From the NCBI GenBank assembly GCA_964394685.1, contig CAYMYO010000004.1, positions 9,063 to 64,442 of the forward strand: a stretch of DNA of 55,380 nt. The letters are read 5' to 3'. The notes below the pieces were generated by a model that searched no databases, was not told the origin of the DNA, and saw nothing but the letters and a program-made list of their open reading frames with translations. A program made the translations under genes and the position numbers. Positions 4,563 through 52,596 of this stretch are shown one piece after another. This stretch comes from an uncultured Gammaproteobacteria bacterium (lineage in GTDB: Bacteria > Patescibacteriota > Microgenomatia > UBA10105 > UBA927). Each line of letters opens with the position of its first letter. The stretch's first letter is position 1.

Positions 4563-5339
4563 ATGCTACCAGTTTTATTTTCTATCGGGTCATTTCATCT
4601 GTATAGCTTTAGTATTTTCCTTATCCTTGCGTGGTGCGTATGGTCATTCTTTTTTTGGAGATATCTTCGAAATCTTGCAGTGAAGGAAGATACGATATTT
4701 GACATCATGTTTTACACGACGATAGTATCTTTCTTTGTCTCAAGAGCTTTTTATGTAGGTACTCATATACCGCTCTTTTCTGATGGGTGGTTGAAAGTGG
4801 TTGCGTTATGGGTGCAACCAGGACTATCTTTTACCGGAGCGCTTATTGGAGGAGTTATTGTTTCCATACTGTTAGGACTGCGATACAAGGTGCGCATTGC
4901 ATATATTTTAGATGGACTCACTCATGCACTCTCTTGGAGTTTTTTAATTGCCTCTATTGGATCTTTTCTTGATGGATCAGTCGTAGGGAAAATTACAACG
5001 CTGCCATGGGCAGTGAGATACATTGGGCATATTGGAACACGTCATCCTATACAACTGTATGAAATTTTGGGTATGGCAGTGATTATTTTTATCTGTTGGC
5101 ACTTTCGGACGATCAAAACTTCAATAGTATTCTTTCTGTTATTTGCAACTGCAATGTTTCTATTTGAATTTTTTGTCGAATCTGATGTATACTGGGGAAG
5201 TCTGAGCGTCAATCAATGGGTATATGTGGGAATCATAGGACAGGCAATTGGCGCTTTTTATGTTCGTGGAGGAGGCAAAGAAAAACTCAGCCGACTAGGA
5301 GGAATAATTTATGGTAAGTTTTCCAAGCGACATTCTTAG
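4563..5339 (+). CDS. Lgt-like (prolipoprotein diacylglyceryl transferase family) membrane protein with degenerate catalytic motifs
   Basis: Start moved to the in-frame ATG at 4563; RHPIQLYE signature, GLSFTGAL, multiple TM segments. Confidence 0.8.
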   Translation: MLPVLFSIGSFHLYSFSIFLILAWCVWSFFFWRYLRNLAVKEDTIFDIMFYTTIVSFFVSRAFYVGTHIPLFSDGWLKVVALWVQPGLSFTGALIGGVIVSILLGLRYKVRIAYILDGLTHALSWSFLIASIGSFLDGSVVGKITTLPWAVRYIGHIGTRHPIQLYEILGMAVIIFICWHFRTIKTSIVFFLLFATAMFLFEFFVESDVYWGSLSVNQWVYVGIIGQAIGAFYVRGGGKEKLSRLGGIIYGKFSKRHS

Positions 5340-5673: not shown

Positions 5674-6440
5674 ATCCTCAAATTCTTTTTGAAGATGATG
5701 TAATGCTTGCAATTAACAAGCCCCCGGGAATTGTGGTCAATCGCGCAGAATCGGTAAAAGGCGAAACAGTACAGGAGTGGGCTGAGGAAAAAGTTCATAG
5801 TTCACAGTTTATAGTTCATAGTGAACAAGAACAAGAGTTTGTGAATCGGGCGGGGATAGTGCACAGAATTGATAAAGAAACCTCGGGCATACTTCTTATT
5901 GCTAAAACTTCCGAAAGTTTCGTTGAACTTCAGCGGCAGTTTAAGGAACGGATTGTTAAAAAAACATATCTTGCCATTGTGCATGGAGAACTAAAACCTG
6001 AAAAAGGAGAAATCCGTGCACCGGTCGGACGACTTCCATGGAATCGGGAGCGGTTCGGAATCGTACCTGGTGGAAAAGAGTCGGTTACACGATATACGGT
6101 TCGTAAATTGTTTACCAAAGACGGCACGCCGTTTTCTTTTGTTGAACTTTATCCAGAGACAGGACGAACGCATCAAATCAGAGTTCATATGAAATACCTA
6201 AATCATCCATTATTAGGTGATTATTTATATGCAGGACGTAAAACGAGTAGGAATGATCGCACGTGGGCAACGCGGGTTATGCTTCATGCGTGGAAATTGG
6301 TGTGTATGCATCCAACCACAGGTGTTGCTATTGAAATAATTGCCCCGATACCGGATGATATAAGTAGTATTTGTAACGCTTGTCATCCCGAACTTGTTTC
6401 GGGATCCACGGGAATATCGGAAGACTGGATGCTGAAATGA
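5670..6440 (+). CDS. rluD: RluA/RluD family pseudouridine synthase
   Basis: NKPPG, HRIDKETSG (catalytic Asp), TGRTHQIRVH, LHAW; last ~19 codons derive from the repeat at 6381. Confidence 0.92.
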   Translation: MNPQILFEDDVMLAINKPPGIVVNRAESVKGETVQEWAEEKVHSSQFIVHSEQEQEFVNRAGIVHRIDKETSGILLIAKTSESFVELQRQFKERIVKKTYLAIVHGELKPEKGEIRAPVGRLPWNRERFGIVPGGKESVTRYTVRKLFTKDGTPFSFVELYPETGRTHQIRVHMKYLNHPLLGDYLYAGRKTSRNDRTWATRVMLHAWKLVCMHPTTGVAIEIIAPIPDDISSICNACHPELVSGSTGISEDWMLK

Positions 6441-6453
6441 ATTCAGCATGACA
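6381..6453. repeat. 73-bp double-hairpin REP/RPE-like element, copy 1
   Basis: TGTCAT/ATGACA termini; hairpins ATCCCGAA/TTCGGGAT and ATGCTGAA/TTCAGCAT; 65/73 identical to 15271-15343. Confidence 0.9.
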
Positions 6454-6464
6454 AGGGAGATATT

Positions 6465-8180
6465 ATGACACTCTTTACCACTCTGCTTCTGGTATTTCTT
6501 TCAGCAATCATTGGTGGGCTCGTTGCTAAAAAATTACGCCAGCCGGCAATTATTGGATATATTGCTGTTGGGGTTTTTGTTGGAAATATATTTTCGAAAT
6601 CAATTGATAAGGGGCTTATTAATCAGATAGCGGAAGTGGGTGTGACGCTTCTTTTGTTTACCCTTGGAGTTGAATTTTCATTTGAGCGGTTGAAAAAAAT
6701 ACTAAAGACAGTATCCTGGGCAGCGACGTTACAGATCCTTATTTCATTTTTTGTATTTCTCCCTCTTTTTTCGTGGTTTGGGTATGCGTTTTTACCGGCT
6801 CTTTTTATTGCAGTCGCTAGCGCCCTGTCTTCAACAGCCGTTGTGGTGAGGATGCTTACCGAACGGGGAGAGAAAGAGACTATTCCTGGCGAAGTAATGA
6901 CAGGATGGTGCGTGGTGCAGGATTTGGCAGTGATTCCTATTATGATGCTTCTTCCGGCGCTTAGCTCTATCTATCTTTCTGGTGCTTCATCAATTGTTGC
7001 AACCGTAAGTATTACCTTAATTAATATTGTCAAAGCAAGTATAGCTATTGGGGGAGTTATATTTCTTGGGAAAATTGGCGTTCCGTGGATTGTTCAAGCA
7101 GTGGCTCGGTTTGGAAGTAGAGAACTGTTTCTTTTGACGGTCATTGCGCTTGTCTTTTTATCCGCTTCTATTGCTTATGGTGTTGGACTGTCAGCGGCTC
7201 TTGGTGCATTTATTGCCGGTCTTATTGTATCGGAAACTTCTCAAAATCATACAATTTTTTCTGAAATCAGACCACTTCGGGATTTGTTTGCTGTTGTTTT
7301 TTTTGTATCGCTTGGTATGGCACTTCCGATTTCACTCCTTACTCCCATTGTGCCAACGCTTCTTGTTGCTACCGTAGGGATACTCACGGTGAAGATGGTT
7401 ATTATCTATCTCATCTCCCGTTTTGTTGGGTACCATCGGAAAACAGCGTTTTTGGTAGCTGTCGGGCTTTCTCAAATGAGTGAATTTGGTTTTATTATTG
7501 CCAAGGAAGGATTTGCAATTGGAGCCATAAGCGAACAGCAATACGCGCTTCTGGTTGCATTAGTATTTACAACCATTATGGTGAGCGCCCCGATGTCTTC
7601 GCAGGGACATGGGTTATATTACTGGATGAGAGAGAAAACCAGACGGTGGTTCCCGAAGATATTTCCGGATAGAAAAGAAGAGGCATTGTATACTGCTAAT
7701 CCAACGCTTCGCGATCACGTGGTTATTTGCGGGTATGGACGTGTAGGGAAGTATATCGGTCGCGCGCTTCAAATGGCAACTATTCCGTTTCTTGTTGTTG
7801 ACTACAATGAAACAACAACCAGAGAGCTTCGAGAAAAAGGAATTCCTGTATTATATGGAGATCCAGCTGATATTGAAGTACTTGATCATGCGGAAGTAGA
7901 CTACGCAAAATTATTAGTCGTGGCAATTCCAGATCGGCATACCCAAGAGATGGTGATAGCCAATGCGCAAACGTTAAACAAACATATTACGATTCTTTGC
8001 AGGACGCATCATGAGGAAGATCAGATCAGGCTTAAAACGTTGCATGTTGCGCATATCATTCAGCCGGAGTTTGAAGCGGCAATTTCAATAACAACAAAAC
8101 TATTCCGTAAGTATGGAGTTCCTGAAGAGGATATCCCAGGGAAGTTACAACGTTTGAAAATTGAACATGGGATGGGATAA
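6465..8180 (+). CDS. CPA2 cation:proton antiporter (Kef-type) with C-terminal TrkA-N/RCK domain
   Basis: About 12 TM segments, SSTAVV, QDLAV, RDLFAVVFFVSLG, ICGYGRVG Rossmann motif. Confidence 0.92.
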   Translation: MTLFTTLLLVFLSAIIGGLVAKKLRQPAIIGYIAVGVFVGNIFSKSIDKGLINQIAEVGVTLLLFTLGVEFSFERLKKILKTVSWAATLQILISFFVFLPLFSWFGYAFLPALFIAVASALSSTAVVVRMLTERGEKETIPGEVMTGWCVVQDLAVIPIMMLLPALSSIYLSGASSIVATVSITLINIVKASIAIGGVIFLGKIGVPWIVQAVARFGSRELFLLTVIALVFLSASIAYGVGLSAALGAFIAGLIVSETSQNHTIFSEIRPLRDLFAVVFFVSLGMALPISLLTPIVPTLLVATVGILTVKMVIIYLISRFVGYHRKTAFLVAVGLSQMSEFGFIIAKEGFAIGAISEQQYALLVALVFTTIMVSAPMSSQGHGLYYWMREKTRRWFPKIFPDRKEEALYTANPTLRDHVVICGYGRVGKYIGRALQMATIPFLVVDYNETTTRELREKGIPVLYGDPADIEVLDHAEVDYAKLLVVAIPDRHTQEMVIANAQTLNKHITILCRTHHEEDQIRLKTLHVAHIIQPEFEAAISITTKLFRKYGVPEEDIPGKLQRLKIEHGMG

Positions 8181-36829: not shown

Positions 36830-37313
36830 AGCCTGCCTGCCGGCGAGGCAGGCCTTCACGTTTATTGAACTGATTATTGTTATTGCGATTATTTTGGTTA
36901 TATCGCTTGGAGTTATTGTTAATTACAACTCGTATACAGATCGCGAACGTGTTCGTCAATCAGGACTCACCATTAAATCAGATATGAGACTTGTTGCTTC
37001 AAAAGTTAATTCTGGAGTGAAATCTACCACATGTGCAACGCTTGTTAGCTACGATGTTACGTTTACTACAATTTGTTCTGACGGAATTAGATCGTGTTAC
37101 ACTATTACTCCTCGTTGTTCAAATGGGCTCGGTGAGGAAGTAACAGTGTATATTCCAAAAGAAGTCCATTTTCAATCTGCTGATCAAACAATTCGATTTT
37201 TACCCTTATCTCTTGGAACGAATTTAACAACAGATGCTGTCATTACTCTTGGTGGCTATTCGGCAGTATATACCATTAAAATTAGTCCATCTGGAATTAT
37301 TAGTGATTATTAA
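36810..37313 (+). CDS. Minor pilin (FimT/GspH-like)
   Basis: A|FTFIELI; start ATG at 36810. Confidence 0.82.
   Translation: MERRTRKACLPARQAFTFIELIIVIAIILVISLGVIVNYNSYTDRERVRQSGLTIKSDMRLVASKVNSGVKSTTCATLVSYDVTFTTICSDGIRSCYTITPRCSNGLGEEVTVYIPKEVHFQSADQTIRFLPLSLGTNLTTDAVITLGGYSAVYTIKISPSGIISDY
36832..36852. repeat. 21-bp mini-palindrome in a prepilin leader
   Basis: Removal gives MERRTRKA|FTF. Confidence 0.9.
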
Positions 37314-46119: not shown

Positions 46120-46224
46120 TTATCGGATAGACAGTAGTGGTATAAATGATGTTGCAATAAGAGCAAGAGATGCAATCACCACCACTACTTTCCAGAATGT
46201 TTCATGTTTTCTAAAAAAGTTCAT
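46120..46224 (-). CDS. 34-aa single-TM small protein (not in ORF track)
   Basis: MNFFRKHETFWKVVVVIASLALIATSFIPLLSIR; ATGA overlap with the tyrS stop; ends 6 nt before recG. Confidence 0.7.
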   Translation of the reverse strand: MNFFRKHETFWKVVVVIASLALIATSFIPLLSIR

Positions 46225-47405
46225 ATAATATGTATTTTAACAAATTTCTTTTTACCGATTTTGATTATATCATCTTCTTTTATCCGCCAGCTGACGGATT
46301 GGCATTTAGCATTGTTGATTTCCACTGCTTTTTGTTCAAAAAGTCTTCTCGCTTCAGATTTGCTGGTTACTTGATTTGTCGCAACCAATAAATCGACGAT
46401 ATTCCAGTCTGTTTGCTTAGTTTCAAAAACAGGTGCTGACACGAGTAGACTCTCCCTTTTTTGGTGAACCGCTTCAAATTCTTCCTGCGCTTTTTGAGCT
46501 GAACCTTCATCATTGAGCATCTTTGTTAACTCAAAAGCCAGTTGTTTCTTGAATAACATGGGATTTTCACCATTTTTTATTTTTGCTTCAATTTCTTCTG
46601 TGGAACGATCCGTCAAAAGAGTAAAGCATGGAATGATTGCATCATCACCAAGTGACATGATTTTTGCGTAAAATTCCGCTGGTGCATCTGTAAGTCCAAT
46701 GACGTTCCCTTCAGTTTTTCCAATTTTTACTCCCTTACTGTCAGCAAGGAGTGGCACGGTCATGACAAACTTTTCTCTTCCCTGCATTGCTTTGACGAGT
46801 GTGCGGCCCGCAAGCATATTAAACGTCTGATCTGTTCCACCGAGTTCTAGATCTACGTTCATTGCGACGGAATCATAGCCCTGAAGAAGCGGGTACAGAA
46901 ATTCACGCAAATTAATGGGATCCCCTGCTTTGATGCGTACCTGATACATGTCCCGTTCGATCATTTGTTGAACGGTAAAATTTTGGGCAATATTGAGAAT
47001 ATCTTCTAGAGTAAGTTTCGTGAGCCAATCACCGTTATAGCGAATTTCAATAGGATTATCGCCATCAAACCGTACGATTTTAGCTGCCTGTTTCAGGTAT
47101 GACACCGCGTTATTTCTTAGTTCCTGACGATCCATGAAACGACCACGTGCCTTCATTTTTCCCGATGGATCCCCTGCGAGTCCCGTTCCATCACCGATAA
47201 GAAAAATGACATGATGTCCTAAATCTTGCCATTGACGAAGTTTTCTAAATCCTACTGCATGGCCAATATGAAGTTGTGTGCCAGTCGGATCAAATCCCTG
47301 GTAAAGGGTTAATTTTTTTCCACTGCGAAGCACTTTTTCCAATGATTCTTTTGTTGGGTAAATTGTATCTACCCCTCGAGTGAGTAATGTATCAATTGCA
47401 TCCAT
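46221..47405 (-). CDS. tyrS: Tyrosyl-tRNA synthetase
   Basis: GFDPTG..LHIGH, YPLLQGYD, GGTDQTFN, KIGKT, C-terminal S4 domain; SD AGGAGG supports start at 47405. Confidence 0.97.
   Translation of the reverse strand: MDAIDTLLTRGVDTIYPTKESLEKVLRSGKKLTLYQGFDPTGTQLHIGHAVGFRKLRQWQDLGHHVIFLIGDGTGLAGDPSGKMKARGRFMDRQELRNNAVSYLKQAAKIVRFDGDNPIEIRYNGDWLTKLTLEDILNIAQNFTVQQMIERDMYQVRIKAGDPINLREFLYPLLQGYDSVAMNVDLELGGTDQTFNMLAGRTLVKAMQGREKFVMTVPLLADSKGVKIGKTEGNVIGLTDAPAEFYAKIMSLGDDAIIPCFTLLTDRSTEEIEAKIKNGENPMLFKKQLAFELTKMLNDEGSAQKAQEEFEAVHQKRESLLVSAPVFETKQTDWNIVDLLVATNQVTSKSEARRLFEQKAVEINNAKCQSVSWRIKEDDIIKIGKKKFVKIHII
46283..46298. repeat. Variant palindrome TCCGCCAGCTGACGGA inside the tyrS S4 domain
   Basis: One mismatch to the 16-bp palindrome at 14207 and 20365. 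Confidence 0.7.
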
Positions 47406-47455
47406 AATTCCTCCTTTTACTATATCATAATCATAATTAATAAAACTCACCTATA

Positions 47456-48571: not shown

Positions 48572-49425
48572 ATTCTCTCCTTTTGAATAATGACCCTGCA
48601 TGAAATTGGACTAAAGTCCAACACATGTCCTTTTACTGGATCTTGATTAATACGGTTCTGCATTTCTGGTGTTACGACGGGAAGTGACGCATCAAATGTT
48701 AACCATTGCGTAACTTTTTTTGTTTGTGCCACAGCGTCATCAAATTCGTTTTTTGTAAATGCAGCTTGAAACGTCGGAATAAGGAGTGGTACGATCTCGG
48801 ATTTTGTCCACATTAGACGGGTTTCCATAGCTAATATAAATTCCGGCGTACTGTTTCTTTGGTAATCGGCAATCATGACAAATCCGCCCGGTTTGGTTAC
48901 TCGTACAAACTCCGATATCACTTTTTGTAGTTTCTCTTCACTATCTAACTGATGTGTTGAATTATGAACAACAACCAGATCAAATATATTATCTGGTGTA
49001 GCTATTTGATCAACCGGCGACAGAATAGTCGAAAAGCGATCTTCAGAAAATAATTCACTTGCCATATTTCGTGCATGATCGAGCATAACGGTATGTCCGT
49101 CTTGAAACGTTACGTGACCTGCACCAAGTTGTAATAATTCTCTACCGAGTCTTCCTGGACCAGTCATAGAATCAAGGATATTCATGTTTTGTATATTTTG
49201 TATATCTGATTTACTAAACCACCGCTCATTTATTTCCAAGGCAACAAGTAAATCGTCTGCCGATTCGGGAAAGTCACATCCGTGAATGTACAATCTTGCT
49301 TCCTCATCAGTAAACATTTCCGATTTTTCAGGAACCCGCGTTCGCAGGTCGAGTTTCCGTAACCCAAACGGATCGCTCTCAGCTGTCGCTGTGTGTTTCA
49401 GTGTATCTCTCATAGTATCTCTCAT
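48568..49425 (-). CDS. Class I SAM-dependent methyltransferase
   Basis: ILDSMTGPG motif I, FDLVVVHNSTH, RVTKPGG; SD AGGAGG. Confidence 0.85.
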   Translation of the reverse strand: MRDTMRDTLKHTATAESDPFGLRKLDLRTRVPEKSEMFTDEEARLYIHGCDFPESADDLLVALEINERWFSKSDIQNIQNMNILDSMTGPGRLGRELLQLGAGHVTFQDGHTVMLDHARNMASELFSEDRFSTILSPVDQIATPDNIFDLVVVHNSTHQLDSEEKLQKVISEFVRVTKPGGFVMIADYQRNSTPEFILAMETRLMWTKSEIVPLLIPTFQAAFTKNEFDDAVAQTKKVTQWLTFDASLPVVTPEMQNRINQDPVKGHVLDFSPISCRVIIQKERI

Positions 49426-49461
49426 ATTTCCTCCTCCTAAATGTTTTTATATATGCGTCTG

Positions 49462-49546
49462 TGCTGAGGGAAGGATTTGAACCTTCGTAGGTCTTTAGAC
49501 CACCTGTTTTACAGACAGGTACATTTGACCGCTCTGTCACCTCAGC
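49462..49546 (-). tRNA. tRNA-Tyr(GTA), CCA not encoded
   Basis: Acceptor GCTGAGG/CCTCAGC, anticodon stem CCTGT/ACAGG, loop CTGTAAA, long variable arm, T loop TTCAAAT, A73. Confidence 0.95.
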
Positions 49547-49618
49547 GTTTCTAAATACCCTTCGGGTATCGTGGCTCGTACGCCTTTTCTCTATGAATCG
49601 AAAAAGCTACGAATCCAC

Positions 49619-49666
49619 AAAAAAAACTCGCCTCCATCCCGCTTTGCGGGACAAGGGCGAGTTTTT
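49619..49666 (-). terminator. T-box intrinsic terminator
   Basis: AAAAACTCGCC...GGCGAGTTTTTTTT; mutually exclusive with the antiterminator AAGG/CCTT plus GCG/CGC. Confidence 0.85.
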
Positions 49667-49940
49667 AATTCGCGGTACCACCTTGGTTCGTAACAATGCC
49701 ATTAAAAAATCCCGACACTGCGGGATTCAAAGCGAGGTATTGTTACCTTCTACTTCGAGTACGTGCTTTGCAGTGATACTCTAGCTTTTGGTTACGGAAG
49801 CTTCCGTCCCGCCTTACTTTTTGTTCTGGCGGGAAGCTCAGGAGGGTATTTCGAAAGAGAAAATTCGGCAAGTCTTGCATCAACCGCTTGCTTTCTTATT
49901 GTCACTTTTATCTTTCTACTTCATCTCCGTCAACGCTTTT
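49619..49940 (-). promoter_or_regulatory. T-box riboswitch with Tyr (UAC) specifier
   Basis: Stem I with GA motif, AGTA, AGAAAG bulge, GGTTGATGCAA apical loop, GAAA-TAC specifier (49848-49846); T-box AAGGTGGTACCGCG (49684-49671); terminator. Confidence 0.88.
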
Positions 49941-49960
49941 CCTATTAACTTGTACATGGT

Positions 49961-49969
49961 ATTGTAGCA
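49961..49969 (-). promoter_or_regulatory. Extended -10 promoter for the T-box leader
   Basis: TGc-TACAAT on the minus strand, about 20 nt before stem I; divergent from the PBP promoter. Confidence 0.55.
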
Positions 49970-50004
49970 TAGATTGCATTGATGTCAAGATGTGGCATAC
50001 AATA

Positions 50005-52596
50005 ATGGATATGCAGCGGATATTTTTGGAACGACAGTTGAAGAAGCATTTTGGATCTCCAAGAAACAGACTTCGAACAATGAGTACTCTTGCGACTGTC
50101 GCTTTTTTTTGCGTACTAGGAGCCGTTGTTTTTGTTGGACTTCTTTTCGCGTGGTACGCTAAGGATTTGCCGCGGCCGGATAAGGTCAATCGTGTAGAAG
50201 GATTGTCCACAGTGATATTAGATCGAACCGGTGAGACGGTCTATGACATTTATGAAAATCAAAATAGAATTCCGGTCAAATTTGAAGATATTCCCAAGGC
50301 ATTAAAAGACGCAACCATTGCTGTTGAAGACAAAGATTTTTACAAACACAAAGGATTATCTACGACCGGCCTTGTCCGGGCAATTGTTAATATTTTTGTA
50401 TTTCGAAACCTTCAAGGCGGATCAACACTGACGCAACAGCTGGTGAAAAACGCTCTTCTGTCACAAGAGCAAACCTTACCGCGAAAAATGAAAGAGGCAG
50501 TGCTTGCGATTCAAATTGAACGGAAATACAGTAAAGATGAAATACTCCAGATGTATTTAAATGAAATTCCATACGGGGGAACCGCCGCGGGAGTCGAAGC
50601 AGCCGCATCGTACTATTTTGATAAGCATGTCAAAGAATTAACAGTGCCTGAAAGTGTTATTCTGGCTGGACTACCTCAAGCACCCTCTTTATATTCTCCG
50701 TTTGGGAAAGATCCTAAGGCATATATAGCGCGCACCCTTCATGTCCTTCGTAGAATGCGCGAGGATGGATATATAACTCCTCAGCAGGAATTGGATTTGA
50801 AAAAACAGATTGAGCAAGTGAAGTTTGTATCTGGAGATATCAATCTCAACGCTCCGCATTTTGTGTCGTACGTAAAAGAGTTGCTTGTTGAAAAATTTGG
50901 CCAAAAAACAGTGGATGCGGGCGGACTCCGCGTGACGACAACCTTGGATTTAAAACTGCAGGAACAAGCACAAAAAATTGTCAAGGAAGAAATTGATAAA
51001 GTGAAGAATTTAAAAGTGAGTAACGGCGCAGCAGTTGTTATTGATCCAAAGACCGGAGAGATCCTTGCGATGGTTGGATCGAAAGACTATATGGCAACAG
51101 AGTCAGGCGGATTTAAGTTTAACGTGGTAACGCAAGGTCTTCGCCAGCCAGGATCCACCATGAAGCCGTTTTCATATGCGGCAGCCTTGAAAAAGGGCTA
51201 CACAGCCTCTACGACCCTCCTGGATGTGGATACCAAGTACCCATCAGGCGATGTAACGAAGCCGGAATACAATCCAAAAAACTATGATGGGAAATATCGG
51301 GGGCCAGTACAGCTTCGGTTTGCCTTGGGTAATTCCATTAACGTTATTGCTGTTAAAGTACTTGCTTTGGTTGGGGTAAAAGACGTGCTGCGGCTGGCTA
51401 CAGATATGGGTATATCTACTCTTGCTCCGACTGATGACAATATTAAACGGTTTGGATTATCTCTTACCTTAGGAGGTGGTGAGGTAACGCTTTTGGATAT
51501 AACCAGCGCATTTGGCGCATTTGGAACTGGTGGTCTTCGACAAGAACCAATTGCGCTTCTTAAAGTTGAAGATACAAAAGGTAAAGTATTGTTTGAACAC
51601 AAGGCGGTTCAATCAAAACGTGTGTTGTCAGCGGATGTTGCGTTTATTGTTTCAAATATTTTATCAGATAATAACGCACGGAAAGAGGTGTTTGGAGAAA
51701 AATCATATTTAGTTATTCCGGGTAAAACTGTCGCAGTTAAAACAGGAACAACTGATGATAAACGGGATAATTGGACGATAGGATACTCACCATCGATTGT
51801 TGTTGGAGTGTGGGTCGGAAATAATGACAATTCTCCGATGAATCCTGCTCTTGCTTCAGGTGTCACGGGGGCTGCTCCAATATGGAATAGGATTATTCGT
51901 GAAACACTGATTGAGAAAAAAGACGAGCCGTTTACAAAACCGGACAACGTTATTGAAATGGAAATTGATTCCTATGCAGGAGGCACTGTTGTTGGTGATG
52001 CGAGACGGAAGGAATTTTTTATCAAAGGAACTGAACCGAATGGATCTGCGACCTGCTACCAAAACATAAAAATATCCAAGCATGATGGAAATAAGCTCGC
52101 AAACATTGTTGAAATACTGAAAGGTGAATATGAAACAAAGCAGTATGTTGTGTGGAAAGAACAAGATCCCGTGTCAGGGGATGGGAAAAATCGTTGGCAA
52201 GATGGGATCAATGCATGGATAGCTGGACAAGGTGACTGGAAATTTCATCCACCGACTGAAACATATAGCGGCGGAGACGCGCTTGCGTTATCAATTAAAG
52301 AACCAAGTAATGGCCAGACGATAAATGATACGAATGTTAAAATTACTGTAAAAGCGACGTCGACAAACGGAATAAGTAAAATTGAGATTTTTGCGGGAGG
52401 TACTACACGAACAGTAAATAGTGATACATTTTCTGACACGATAAGTATGAGTGAAGGTTCATATCAGTCGATTCGGGCAAAAGCAACTGATTCGAAAGGG
52501 AATACGACAGAAAGCGAGATTCATATTGGGGTAAATCAAGCGTTTGCAACACCAACGCCGATTCCTACTGTCACTCCTGTTCCGACCCCAATCTAA
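50005..52596 (+). CDS. Class A penicillin-binding protein (PBP1A family) with C-terminal Ig-like domain and Pro/Thr tail
   Basis: EDKDFY, GGSTLTQQLVKN, RKMKE, YLN; SxxK STMK, SIN, KTGT; start at 50005 or 50011. Confidence 0.95.
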   Translation: MDMQRIFLERQLKKHFGSPRNRLRTMSTLATVAFFCVLGAVVFVGLLFAWYAKDLPRPDKVNRVEGLSTVILDRTGETVYDIYENQNRIPVKFEDIPKALKDATIAVEDKDFYKHKGLSTTGLVRAIVNIFVFRNLQGGSTLTQQLVKNALLSQEQTLPRKMKEAVLAIQIERKYSKDEILQMYLNEIPYGGTAAGVEAAASYYFDKHVKELTVPESVILAGLPQAPSLYSPFGKDPKAYIARTLHVLRRMREDGYITPQQELDLKKQIEQVKFVSGDINLNAPHFVSYVKELLVEKFGQKTVDAGGLRVTTTLDLKLQEQAQKIVKEEIDKVKNLKVSNGAAVVIDPKTGEILAMVGSKDYMATESGGFKFNVVTQGLRQPGSTMKPFSYAAALKKGYTASTTLLDVDTKYPSGDVTKPEYNPKNYDGKYRGPVQLRFALGNSINVIAVKVLALVGVKDVLRLATDMGISTLAPTDDNIKRFGLSLTLGGGEVTLLDITSAFGAFGTGGLRQEPIALLKVEDTKGKVLFEHKAVQSKRVLSADVAFIVSNILSDNNARKEVFGEKSYLVIPGKTVAVKTGTTDDKRDNWTIGYSPSIVVGVWVGNNDNSPMNPALASGVTGAAPIWNRIIRETLIEKKDEPFTKPDNVIEMEIDSYAGGTVVGDARRKEFFIKGTEPNGSATCYQNIKISKHDGNKLANIVEILKGEYETKQYVVWKEQDPVSGDGKNRWQDGINAWIAGQGDWKFHPPTETYSGGDALALSIKEPSNGQTINDTNVKITVKATSTNGISKIEIFAGGTTRTVNSDTFSDTISMSEGSYQSIRAKATDSKGNTTESEIHIGVNQAFATPTPIPTVTPVPTPI

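Follow-up and report, generated by a model that had tools for sequence, protein, structure and literature searches.

A tyrosine-specific T-box leader precedes the gene for its own ligand, tRNA-Tyr, in a Microgenomates-type bacterium of the candidate phyla radiation

The window analyzed here is a 55,380-nucleotide stretch of contig CAYMYO010000004.1 (positions 9,063 to 64,442 of the forward strand), and its minus strand carries a tyrosine-specific T-box riboswitch whose first downstream gene is tRNA-Tyr, the ligand of the riboswitch itself. A methyltransferase gene, a MetE-like gene, and tyrS, which encodes tyrosyl-tRNA synthetase (TyrRS), follow on the same strand, the order that a first-pass annotation made from the letters had claimed. 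The identity, anatomy, and specificity of the T-box, the gene order, its conservation among relatives, and the absence of recognizable internal promoters ahead of the tRNA were all observed. We propose that the T-box heads an operon whose first gene is its ligand tRNA and that this operon works as a feedback circuit, and we give this reading a probability of roughly 0.75. The assembly from which the window was taken (G000; 1.0 Mb, 25 contigs, 40% G+C, marker completeness 100%) is of the Microgenomates/Gottesmanbacteria type within the candidate phyla radiation (CPR). This assignment was supported by the kinship of tyrS, because the nearest tyrS loci belong to metagenome-assembled genomes of Candidatus Gottesmanbacteria, Levybacteria, and Microgenomates; the labels of many of these records wrongly read uncultured Gammaproteobacteria.

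A search with the T-box covariance model of Rfam (RF00230) returned a match over the complete model (positions 1-219) with 106.2 bits against a gathering score of 93 and an E-value of 1.7e-22, and this was the sole T-box in the genome at E<=0.001. The covariance search confirmed the tyrosine-specific T-box proposed in the first-pass annotation, and the Stem I motifs, the UAC specifier, the UGGU bulge, the antiterminator, and the terminator that it had listed were each found where it had placed them (Table 1). The GA/kink-turn motif, the specifier loop with its S-turn (AGUA...GAA), the AG bulge, and the distal loop all aligned at high posterior probability, and compensatory changes were present in 16 of the 23 predicted Stem I pairs in an alignment of 10 orthologs. 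The specifier UAC matches both the anticodon GUA of tRNA-Tyr and the downstream tyrS. In the orthologs the corresponding sequence was GAA[A/U/C]UAC[C/U]CUCC, in which UAC was invariant and the flanking bases varied. The T-box sequence is AAGGUGGUACCGCG, and its UGGU bulge (49680-49677) is complementary to A73-CCA of the tRNA. Both the UAC/GUA match and the UGGU/A73-CCA match held in the window genome and in every ortholog.

The 5' strand of the terminator overlaps the 3' strand of the antiterminator through a shared CCCUUG, so that the two structures are mutually exclusive. All 13 of the 13 orthologous 3' domains folded as a terminator (-28 to -45 kcal/mol) followed by U6-8, and all 13 could form the alternative, overlapping antiterminator with UGGU left free. 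The sequences of the terminator and of helix A2 were wholly different between genera, the length of helix A2 varied as well, and helix A1 switched from C-G to U-A in one ortholog (L046). The leader has the T-box family features that we examined, save for a purine after the specifier. These comparisons confirmed the leader as a canonical full-length, tyrosine-specific, transcription-attenuating T-box that is functional by comparative criteria. Upstream of it, the predicted strong promoter P1 agrees with the consensus at 11 of 12 positions, has the TG of an extended -10 element, and also fits the extended -10 consensus of the lineage described below; its layout, TTGACA...TGnTAnnAT, was kept in the orthologs. 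Transcription of the T-box operon would be expected to start near 49954.

The Stem III loop of the leader holds a nested, terminator-like hairpin followed by U6. A hairpin with U6-9 and covarying stems was found at this place in all Tyr T-box orthologs (L005-L015, L037, L046, and L102), and the aspS, ileS, glyS, and argH T-boxes of relatives had no such hairpin. It is probably a programmed pause site or an early termination checkpoint. Stem I itself was shrunk to a small hairpin, GAGAAUUUUUACACUC, in the Tyr T-boxes of some relatives (L021/L031 of G002, L037, and L102). These short forms present UAC-A as the specifier in the loop and have no distal platform, and they retain the antiterminator and the terminator.

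Table 1. Features of the T-box operon in the window, listed from the leader to tyrS
Feature	Position	Strand	Evidence or detail
Predicted promoter P1 of the T-box operon	49961..49988	-	-35 TTGACA 49988-49983, 16-nt spacer, extended -10 TGC-TACAAT 49969-49961
T-box leader RF00230: Stem I, Stem II, Stem IIA/B, Stem III, antiterminator	49650..49942	-	Rfam full-length match
Stem I: GA (kink-turn) motif, specifier loop, AG bulge, distal loop	49836..49936	-	Rfam alignment
Specifier codon UAC (Tyr)	49846..49848	-	Specifier-loop 3' side = GAAAUACC
Nested hairpin AUCCCG-CAGUGU-CGGGAU + U6 in Stem III loop	49704..49725	-	~-10 kcal/mol, terminator-like
Antiterminator	49652..49685	-	Helix A1 CAAGG/CCUUG, 7-nt bulge UGGUACC, helix A2 GCGA/UCGC
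Intrinsic T-box terminator CUCGCC...GGCGAG + U8	49619..49661	-	-31 kcal/mol in terminator form; U8 = 49626-49619
Spacer: double-hairpin repeat inserted between terminator and tRNA	49554..49618	-	-29 kcal/mol, z = -5.7
tRNA-Tyr(GUA)	49462..49546	-	Rfam tRNA model 61.5 bits + ARAGORN
Class I S-adenosylmethionine-dependent methyltransferase, 285 aa	48568..49425	-	Pfam Methyltransf_25, _11, _31
Single-barrel MetE-like protein, longest open reading frame 381 aa	47456..48601	-	Pfam Meth_synt_2
Predicted promoter P2, extended -10 TGA-TATAGT (TGATATAGT)	47419..47427	-	13 nt upstream of tyrS ATG
tyrS (tyrosyl-tRNA synthetase)	46221..47405	-	TIGR00234 343 bits

The tRNA-Tyr(GUA) gene begins 72 nt past the U-tract and is the first gene after the T-box terminator. 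It has its anticodon at 49512-49510, a long variable arm, a G1-C72 pair, and the discriminator base A73, which was present in 27 of the 27 gated (T-box-preceded) and free tRNA-Tyr copies examined; the CCA end is not encoded, as in most tRNA genes of the window genome. The spacer between terminator and tRNA contains a repeat of about 60 nt (GGAUUCGUAGC...GUACGAGCC, then ACACCCGAAGGGUGU) of which the window genome has three copies. The two others, about 90% identical, are located at C14:18230-18292 and C11:6343-6401, and each of them lies directly after the U-tract of a terminator. The repeat may be a small mobile element aimed at terminators. A search of Rfam at a permissive E-value over 49380-50020 gave no credible match in the spacer, and the hits to sucA, sX4, mir-244, and P9 were far under their cut-offs. 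We rejected the reading of the structured spacer as a second riboswitch or as a promoter, since the element is dispersed in the genome as a repeat and also follows other terminators. In the spacer of one ortholog (L037), between the terminator and tRNA-Tyr, there was a tRNA-like remnant (GCUGGGG...GGUUCGAGUCCUCCCCCUAGCA) that ARAGORN did not call and that may be a decayed second tRNA-Tyr copy.

An independent promoter between 49619 and 49546, which the first-pass annotation had named as the finding that would overturn its reading, did not appear: neither a generic sigma-70 scan of 49619-49547 nor the extended -10 consensus of the lineage gave a match there. The single near-TATAAT hexamer within 49380-49625 falls downstream of the tRNA. 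The repeat was common to the genomes G003 and G006, and the final 10-25 nt ahead of the tRNA were not conserved among these two and the window genome. G001, G004, and members of other genera had no repeat, and their spacers were only 5-16 nt long; the distance from the U-tract to the tRNA was 5 nt in L102, 8 nt in L009/L061 and L046, 13 nt in L007, and 16 nt in L008. Spacers of this length leave no room for a separate tRNA promoter and argue strongly for co-transcription of the tRNA by read-through of the T-box terminator. For the window also, such co-transcription would be the best-supported reading.

To follow the link between T-box and tRNA-Tyr in the 81 species genomes of the family, which span 35 genera, T-box places were crossed against tRNA-Tyr places found with a covariance model specific for this tRNA; it scores tRNA-Tyr at >=76 bits and other class II tRNAs at <=70 bits. 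In 24 of the 81 genomes and 10 of the 35 genera, tRNA-Tyr came after a T-box on the same strand, and at least two genomes from beyond the family (G061 and G062) showed this order as well. The linkage is specific, because none of the 39 other T-box loci of relatives (aspS, glyS, ileS/valS-like, argH, and others) had any tRNA gene within 1.5-2.5 kb downstream. Among 20 strong T-boxes of other Patescibacteria families, one His and one Tyr T-box stood ahead of the cognate tRNA. The His T-box (L150, in G270) has the specifier GAA-CAC-G and a UGGG bulge, and tRNA-His (GTG, C73, encoded CCA) lies 60 nt farther on; the tRNA-Tyr that comes after the Tyr T-box (L161, in G245) is 74 nt long and has a short variable arm. 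These two cases indicate that the T-box/cognate-tRNA design recurs in the phylum. T-box matches as such were found in 46 of 61 relatives, mainly ahead of aminoacyl-tRNA synthetase genes, and the other T-boxes that we examined in relatives sit before aspS, glyS, ileS/valS-like genes, and argH. The description of the lineage as one with little regulation was not borne out by this count. A strong T-box match (E<=1e-12) was present in 29 of 301 evenly sampled Patescibacteria. One contig of a relative (G077, C38) carries a single T-box (6309-6605) with two tRNA-Tyr genes downstream on the same strand (6058-6144 and 4684-4772), and a third, free copy is located elsewhere in that genome.

A free, unlinked tRNA-Tyr gene was found in 22 of the 24 genomes with the linkage, the exceptions being the window genome and G016, which is 87% complete. 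This distribution suggests that the gated tRNA-Tyr is normally an accessory paralog. Within a genome, gated and free copies shared 60-84% identity, and they clustered largely by type; the gated copies form an old, maintained paralog group. In six genomes of the same genus, the free tRNA-Tyr lies directly upstream of tRNA-Thr(TGT). No second tRNA-Tyr was detected in the 1.0 Mb assembly by ARAGORN, the tRNA-Tyr covariance model, a blastn-short search with the free copy of relatives, or a scan for the anticodon arm, and the syntenic Tyr-Thr site on contig C11 was assembled with 296 nt of upstream sequence that contained no tRNA-Tyr. Outside the family, G061 likewise showed only a gated tRNA-Tyr. 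The gated copy is therefore probably the only tRNA-Tyr of the window genome, to judge from these searches. The ancestral tRNA-Thr(TGT) gene at that site, which lies outside the window (C11, ~36940-37195) and is intact in the six same-genus genomes, is split here by four insertions that belong to a family of GC-rich mini-palindromes (CCTGCCGGCAGG; CCTGCCCGC...GCAGGCGGG). The insertion in the anticodon loop of this split gene holds a complete, different tRNA-Thr(TGT) gene.

The methyltransferase gene starts 36 nt past the tRNA with the Shine-Dalgarno sequence AGGAGGAGG, and we found no promoter by scanning and no terminator between the two genes. The MetE-like protein matched PRK06520 and PRK06233 of NCBIfam with 244 and 226 bits, which is under the cut-offs. 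Its true start is probably somewhat farther downstream than that of the longest open reading frame, overlapping the end of the methyltransferase gene. The longest open reading frame of tyrS opens at GTG 47450. The TIGR00234 match begins at residue 16 of this long frame, and ATG 47405 with its Shine-Dalgarno sequence AAGGAGG is likely to be the start instead. The gene recG comes after tyrS on the same strand, and an RNAfold scan from the tRNA to recG revealed no hairpin-plus-U terminator. Terminators were rescanned with RNAfold, and a lineage-specific promoter motif was derived, because the generic sigma-70/terminator scan detected P1 but overlooked even the T-box terminator.

The promoter consensus that we derived from the sequence for this lineage is an extended -10 element, TGnTAnA[AG]T, with 428 occurrences in the genome. 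It occurred 5-9 nt upstream of the start of an open reading frame in 47 of 428 cases (11%) against 0.48% at random positions, an enrichment of about 23-fold. Such placement just before start codons points to leaderless mRNAs as common in the window genome, and many genes of this CPR bacterium are probably transcribed in this way. Between 50100 and 44000, the minus strand matched the motif strictly only at 49969 (P1), 47427, 46272, 46242, and 45737. The match at 47427, designated P2, is the only one between P1 and tyrS; similar motifs (TATGGTATAGT, TGTGATATAGT, and the like) occurred at an equal distance in roughly 15 of the 18 related tyrS loci. Several of these P2-bearing loci had no Shine-Dalgarno sequence. 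Because tyrS has this conserved promoter of its own, TyrRS is probably expressed constitutively from P2 and raised by read-through from P1 rather than switched on by the T-box. The first-pass annotation had proposed that uncharged tRNA-Tyr switches on both its own gene and TyrRS. The part that concerns the tRNA gene was supported, as our scans revealed no promoter of its own, and the part that concerns TyrRS is probably to be reduced to a boost. Within the 3' end of tyrS and ahead of recG, at 46234-46272, the minus strand has two strict extended -10 motifs (TGATATAAT and TGTTAAAAT), and recG therefore probably has its own promoter.

In the circuit that we propose, transcription of the leader would start at P1, and Stem I would capture tRNA-Tyr by UAC-GUA pairing and by stacking of its platform on the tRNA elbow. 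The nested hairpin and U6 in Stem III would pause the polymerase or end some transcripts ahead of the decision point. The free A73-CCA of an uncharged tRNA would pair with UGGU and stabilize the antiterminator; without this contact, the terminator would form and the transcript would end. Read-through would give one precursor that joins tRNA-Tyr to the methyltransferase and MetE-like mRNAs and extends into tyrS. RNase P and a 3' endonuclease would excise the tRNA, and the CCA end would then be added. P2 would provide basal TyrRS, and T-box read-through would lift it above the basal level. Uncharged tRNA-Tyr would raise the amount of tRNA-Tyr, a positive feedback on the ligand, and the amount of TyrRS, a negative feedback that acts through charging. 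Most relatives would have the gated tRNA as an inducible extra beside a constitutive paralog. In the window genome, where the constitutive copy appears to be missing, all tRNA-Tyr would have to come from basal leak of the terminator plus tRNA-induced read-through. A bolder version, in which the T-box gates the only tRNA-Tyr gene in a self-referential loop that restarts from leak only and in which the T-box/cognate-tRNA arrangement is a recurrent CPR design, seems to us evenly poised between right and wrong.

Several points weigh against the proposed circuit and have to be set beside the alternatives. The specifier is followed on its 3' side by C (49845) and not by the purine that is usual, if not strictly defining, for T-boxes; this base was C or U in orthologs with a full Stem I and A in the short-Stem-I relatives. 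This pyrimidine, and the absence from the window genome of the other T-boxes of same-genus relatives, would fit a T-box in decay that has lost its response to tRNA. We consider decay highly improbable, given a score over the Rfam cut-off, intact motifs, a conserved promoter, and covariation of Stem I and the antiterminator/terminator across genera. A sole tRNA gene behind an efficient terminator also poses a bootstrapping problem, which is solved only by assuming leak. An essential tRNA gene that has no second copy runs a risk when it is placed behind a strong terminator, and this risk would favor constitutive transcription of tRNA-Tyr from an unrecognized promoter in, or overlapping, the terminator and spacer, with the T-box gating the coding genes or adding output. 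A non-consensus promoter is possible there: the 72-nt spacer is long enough for one, the sequence before the tRNA is A/T-rich (GGGUAUUUAGAAAC), and, to our knowledge, CPR promoters have not been characterized experimentally. Such a promoter is nevertheless unlikely in view of the negative result with both the sigma-70 and the lineage motifs, the position of the near-TATAAT hexamer after the tRNA, the presence of the spacer repeat after two other terminators, the lack of conservation just ahead of the tRNA, and the short gaps of the orthologs.

The reading of the gated gene as the sole tRNA-Tyr is exposed to the state of the assembly. It comprises 25 contigs with 44-45 tRNAs, compared with 48 tRNAs in one same-genus genome, which is closed, and 46 in another; a free tRNA-Tyr could therefore lie in an assembly gap, and the gated copy would then be accessory as in the relatives. 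Only one tRNA with a CAT anticodon and no Ala-TGC tRNA were found, and several tRNAs are located at contig ends, as this explanation would have it. We nonetheless doubt it, since the syntenic C11 site was assembled without a tRNA-Tyr, no fragment of the free copy occurred anywhere in the assembly, marker completeness was 100%, and G061 also has a gated copy only. A different role for tRNA-Tyr, compatible with the feedback reading that we favor, would be chiefly that of punctuation in RNA processing: its excision would detach the leader and make the 5' end of the mRNA, and feedback on supply would be incidental. Seven related loci (L005, L031, L033, L035, L046, L061, and L102) carry an open reading frame of 274-309 aa whose ATG lies 3 nt past the 3' end of the gated tRNA-Tyr (..GCAC(C)U-AUG in the transcript, ..GCAC(C)T-ATG in the DNA) with no Shine-Dalgarno sequence, so that 3' processing of the tRNA would yield a leaderless mRNA. 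The heavy use of leaderless mRNAs indicated by the 47 extended -10 motifs, and the free tRNA-Tyr of most relatives, which makes the gated copy unneeded for basic supply, would agree with such a role. In the window, by contrast, the gene after the tRNA starts 36 nt farther on behind a strong Shine-Dalgarno sequence and needs no leaderless end. The linked tRNA was moreover always the specifier-matching tRNA-Tyr and never another, and in the window genome it is the sole tRNA-Tyr detected and keeps all standard features; the age and maintenance of the gated paralog group also speak against this role. Punctuation as the chief function is thus a tentative alternative that we think distinctly less probable than feedback on supply.

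The proteins encoded directly after the tRNA in most of these seven loci share the motifs FFGVGLCT..IPFDILSFF..IADxHAxTN..GHDERFFD..SPYI, and the product in L046 is unrelated. For this protein of about 290 aa, no Pfam family was found beyond a faint match to tRNA-synt_1b (class I Trp/Tyr synthetase) with an E-value of 0.024, no sequence relative was found in the PDB, and no homolog was found in the window genome.

If the proposed circuit is true, a riboswitch controls the synthesis of its own ligand, which is also an essential component of translation, and charging by TyrRS acts as the brake. T-boxes are known to act on genes for aminoacyl-tRNA synthetases, amino-acid biosynthesis, and transporters. 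With a tRNA gene as the target, and one that encodes the ligand of the switch, T-box output would gain a new class, and the circuit would have a new topology in which positive feedback on the ligand is joined to a negative feedback exerted via the synthetase. The T-box/cognate-tRNA design, seen for Tyr in several families and for His in another, would constitute a regulatory layer of inducible tRNA that is absent from T-box surveys, and it would mean that CPR bacteria with tiny genomes use elaborate RNA-based control of the translation apparatus. The relatives offer an apparent natural experiment, since most hold both a constitutive and an inducible tRNA-Tyr and the window genome seems to keep the inducible one only. 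We found no published description of this T-box/tRNA-Tyr wiring. A search of the full-text literature, which did not cover subscription journals, gave no precedent for T-boxes in CPR bacteria or for a T-box before a tRNA gene, and tRNA genes are not mentioned as T-box targets in TBDB or by Wels et al. (2008).

The closest known system is the tyrS leader of Bacillus subtilis, the founding Tyr-specific T-box (RF00230). Like it, the leader in the window belongs to the transcriptional attenuation type, with UAC in the specifier loop of Stem I, Stem II, Stem IIA/B, and Stem III, UGGN bulge/NCCA pairing, and a competing antiterminator and terminator, and it lies upstream of tyrS. Unlike in B. subtilis, tRNA-Tyr comes first and two unrelated genes intervene before tyrS, tyrS has an additional promoter of its own, Stem III contains the nested hairpin and U-run, the specifier is followed by C, and the host is a CPR bacterium and not a Firmicute. 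The short-Stem-I T-boxes of Actinobacteria (ileS type) are translational switches. They resemble the Tyr T-boxes of relatives in which Stem I is reduced to the specifier hairpin (G002/L021, L037, and L102), whereas these CPR short variants keep the terminator and the T-box in the window is unreduced. Operons of the E. coli thrU-tyrU-glyT-thrT-tufB type likewise place tRNAs and a downstream gene of the translation apparatus on one precursor, from which the tRNA is released by RNase P and 3' processing, as predicted here; such operons are not known to contain a riboswitch or tRNAs that govern the transcription of their own genes, unlike the tRNA-Tyr proposed to do so in the window. Compared with described T-boxes, what differs in the window is the cognate tRNA gene as a target, the two predicted promoters, the nested hairpin in Stem III, and the CPR host.

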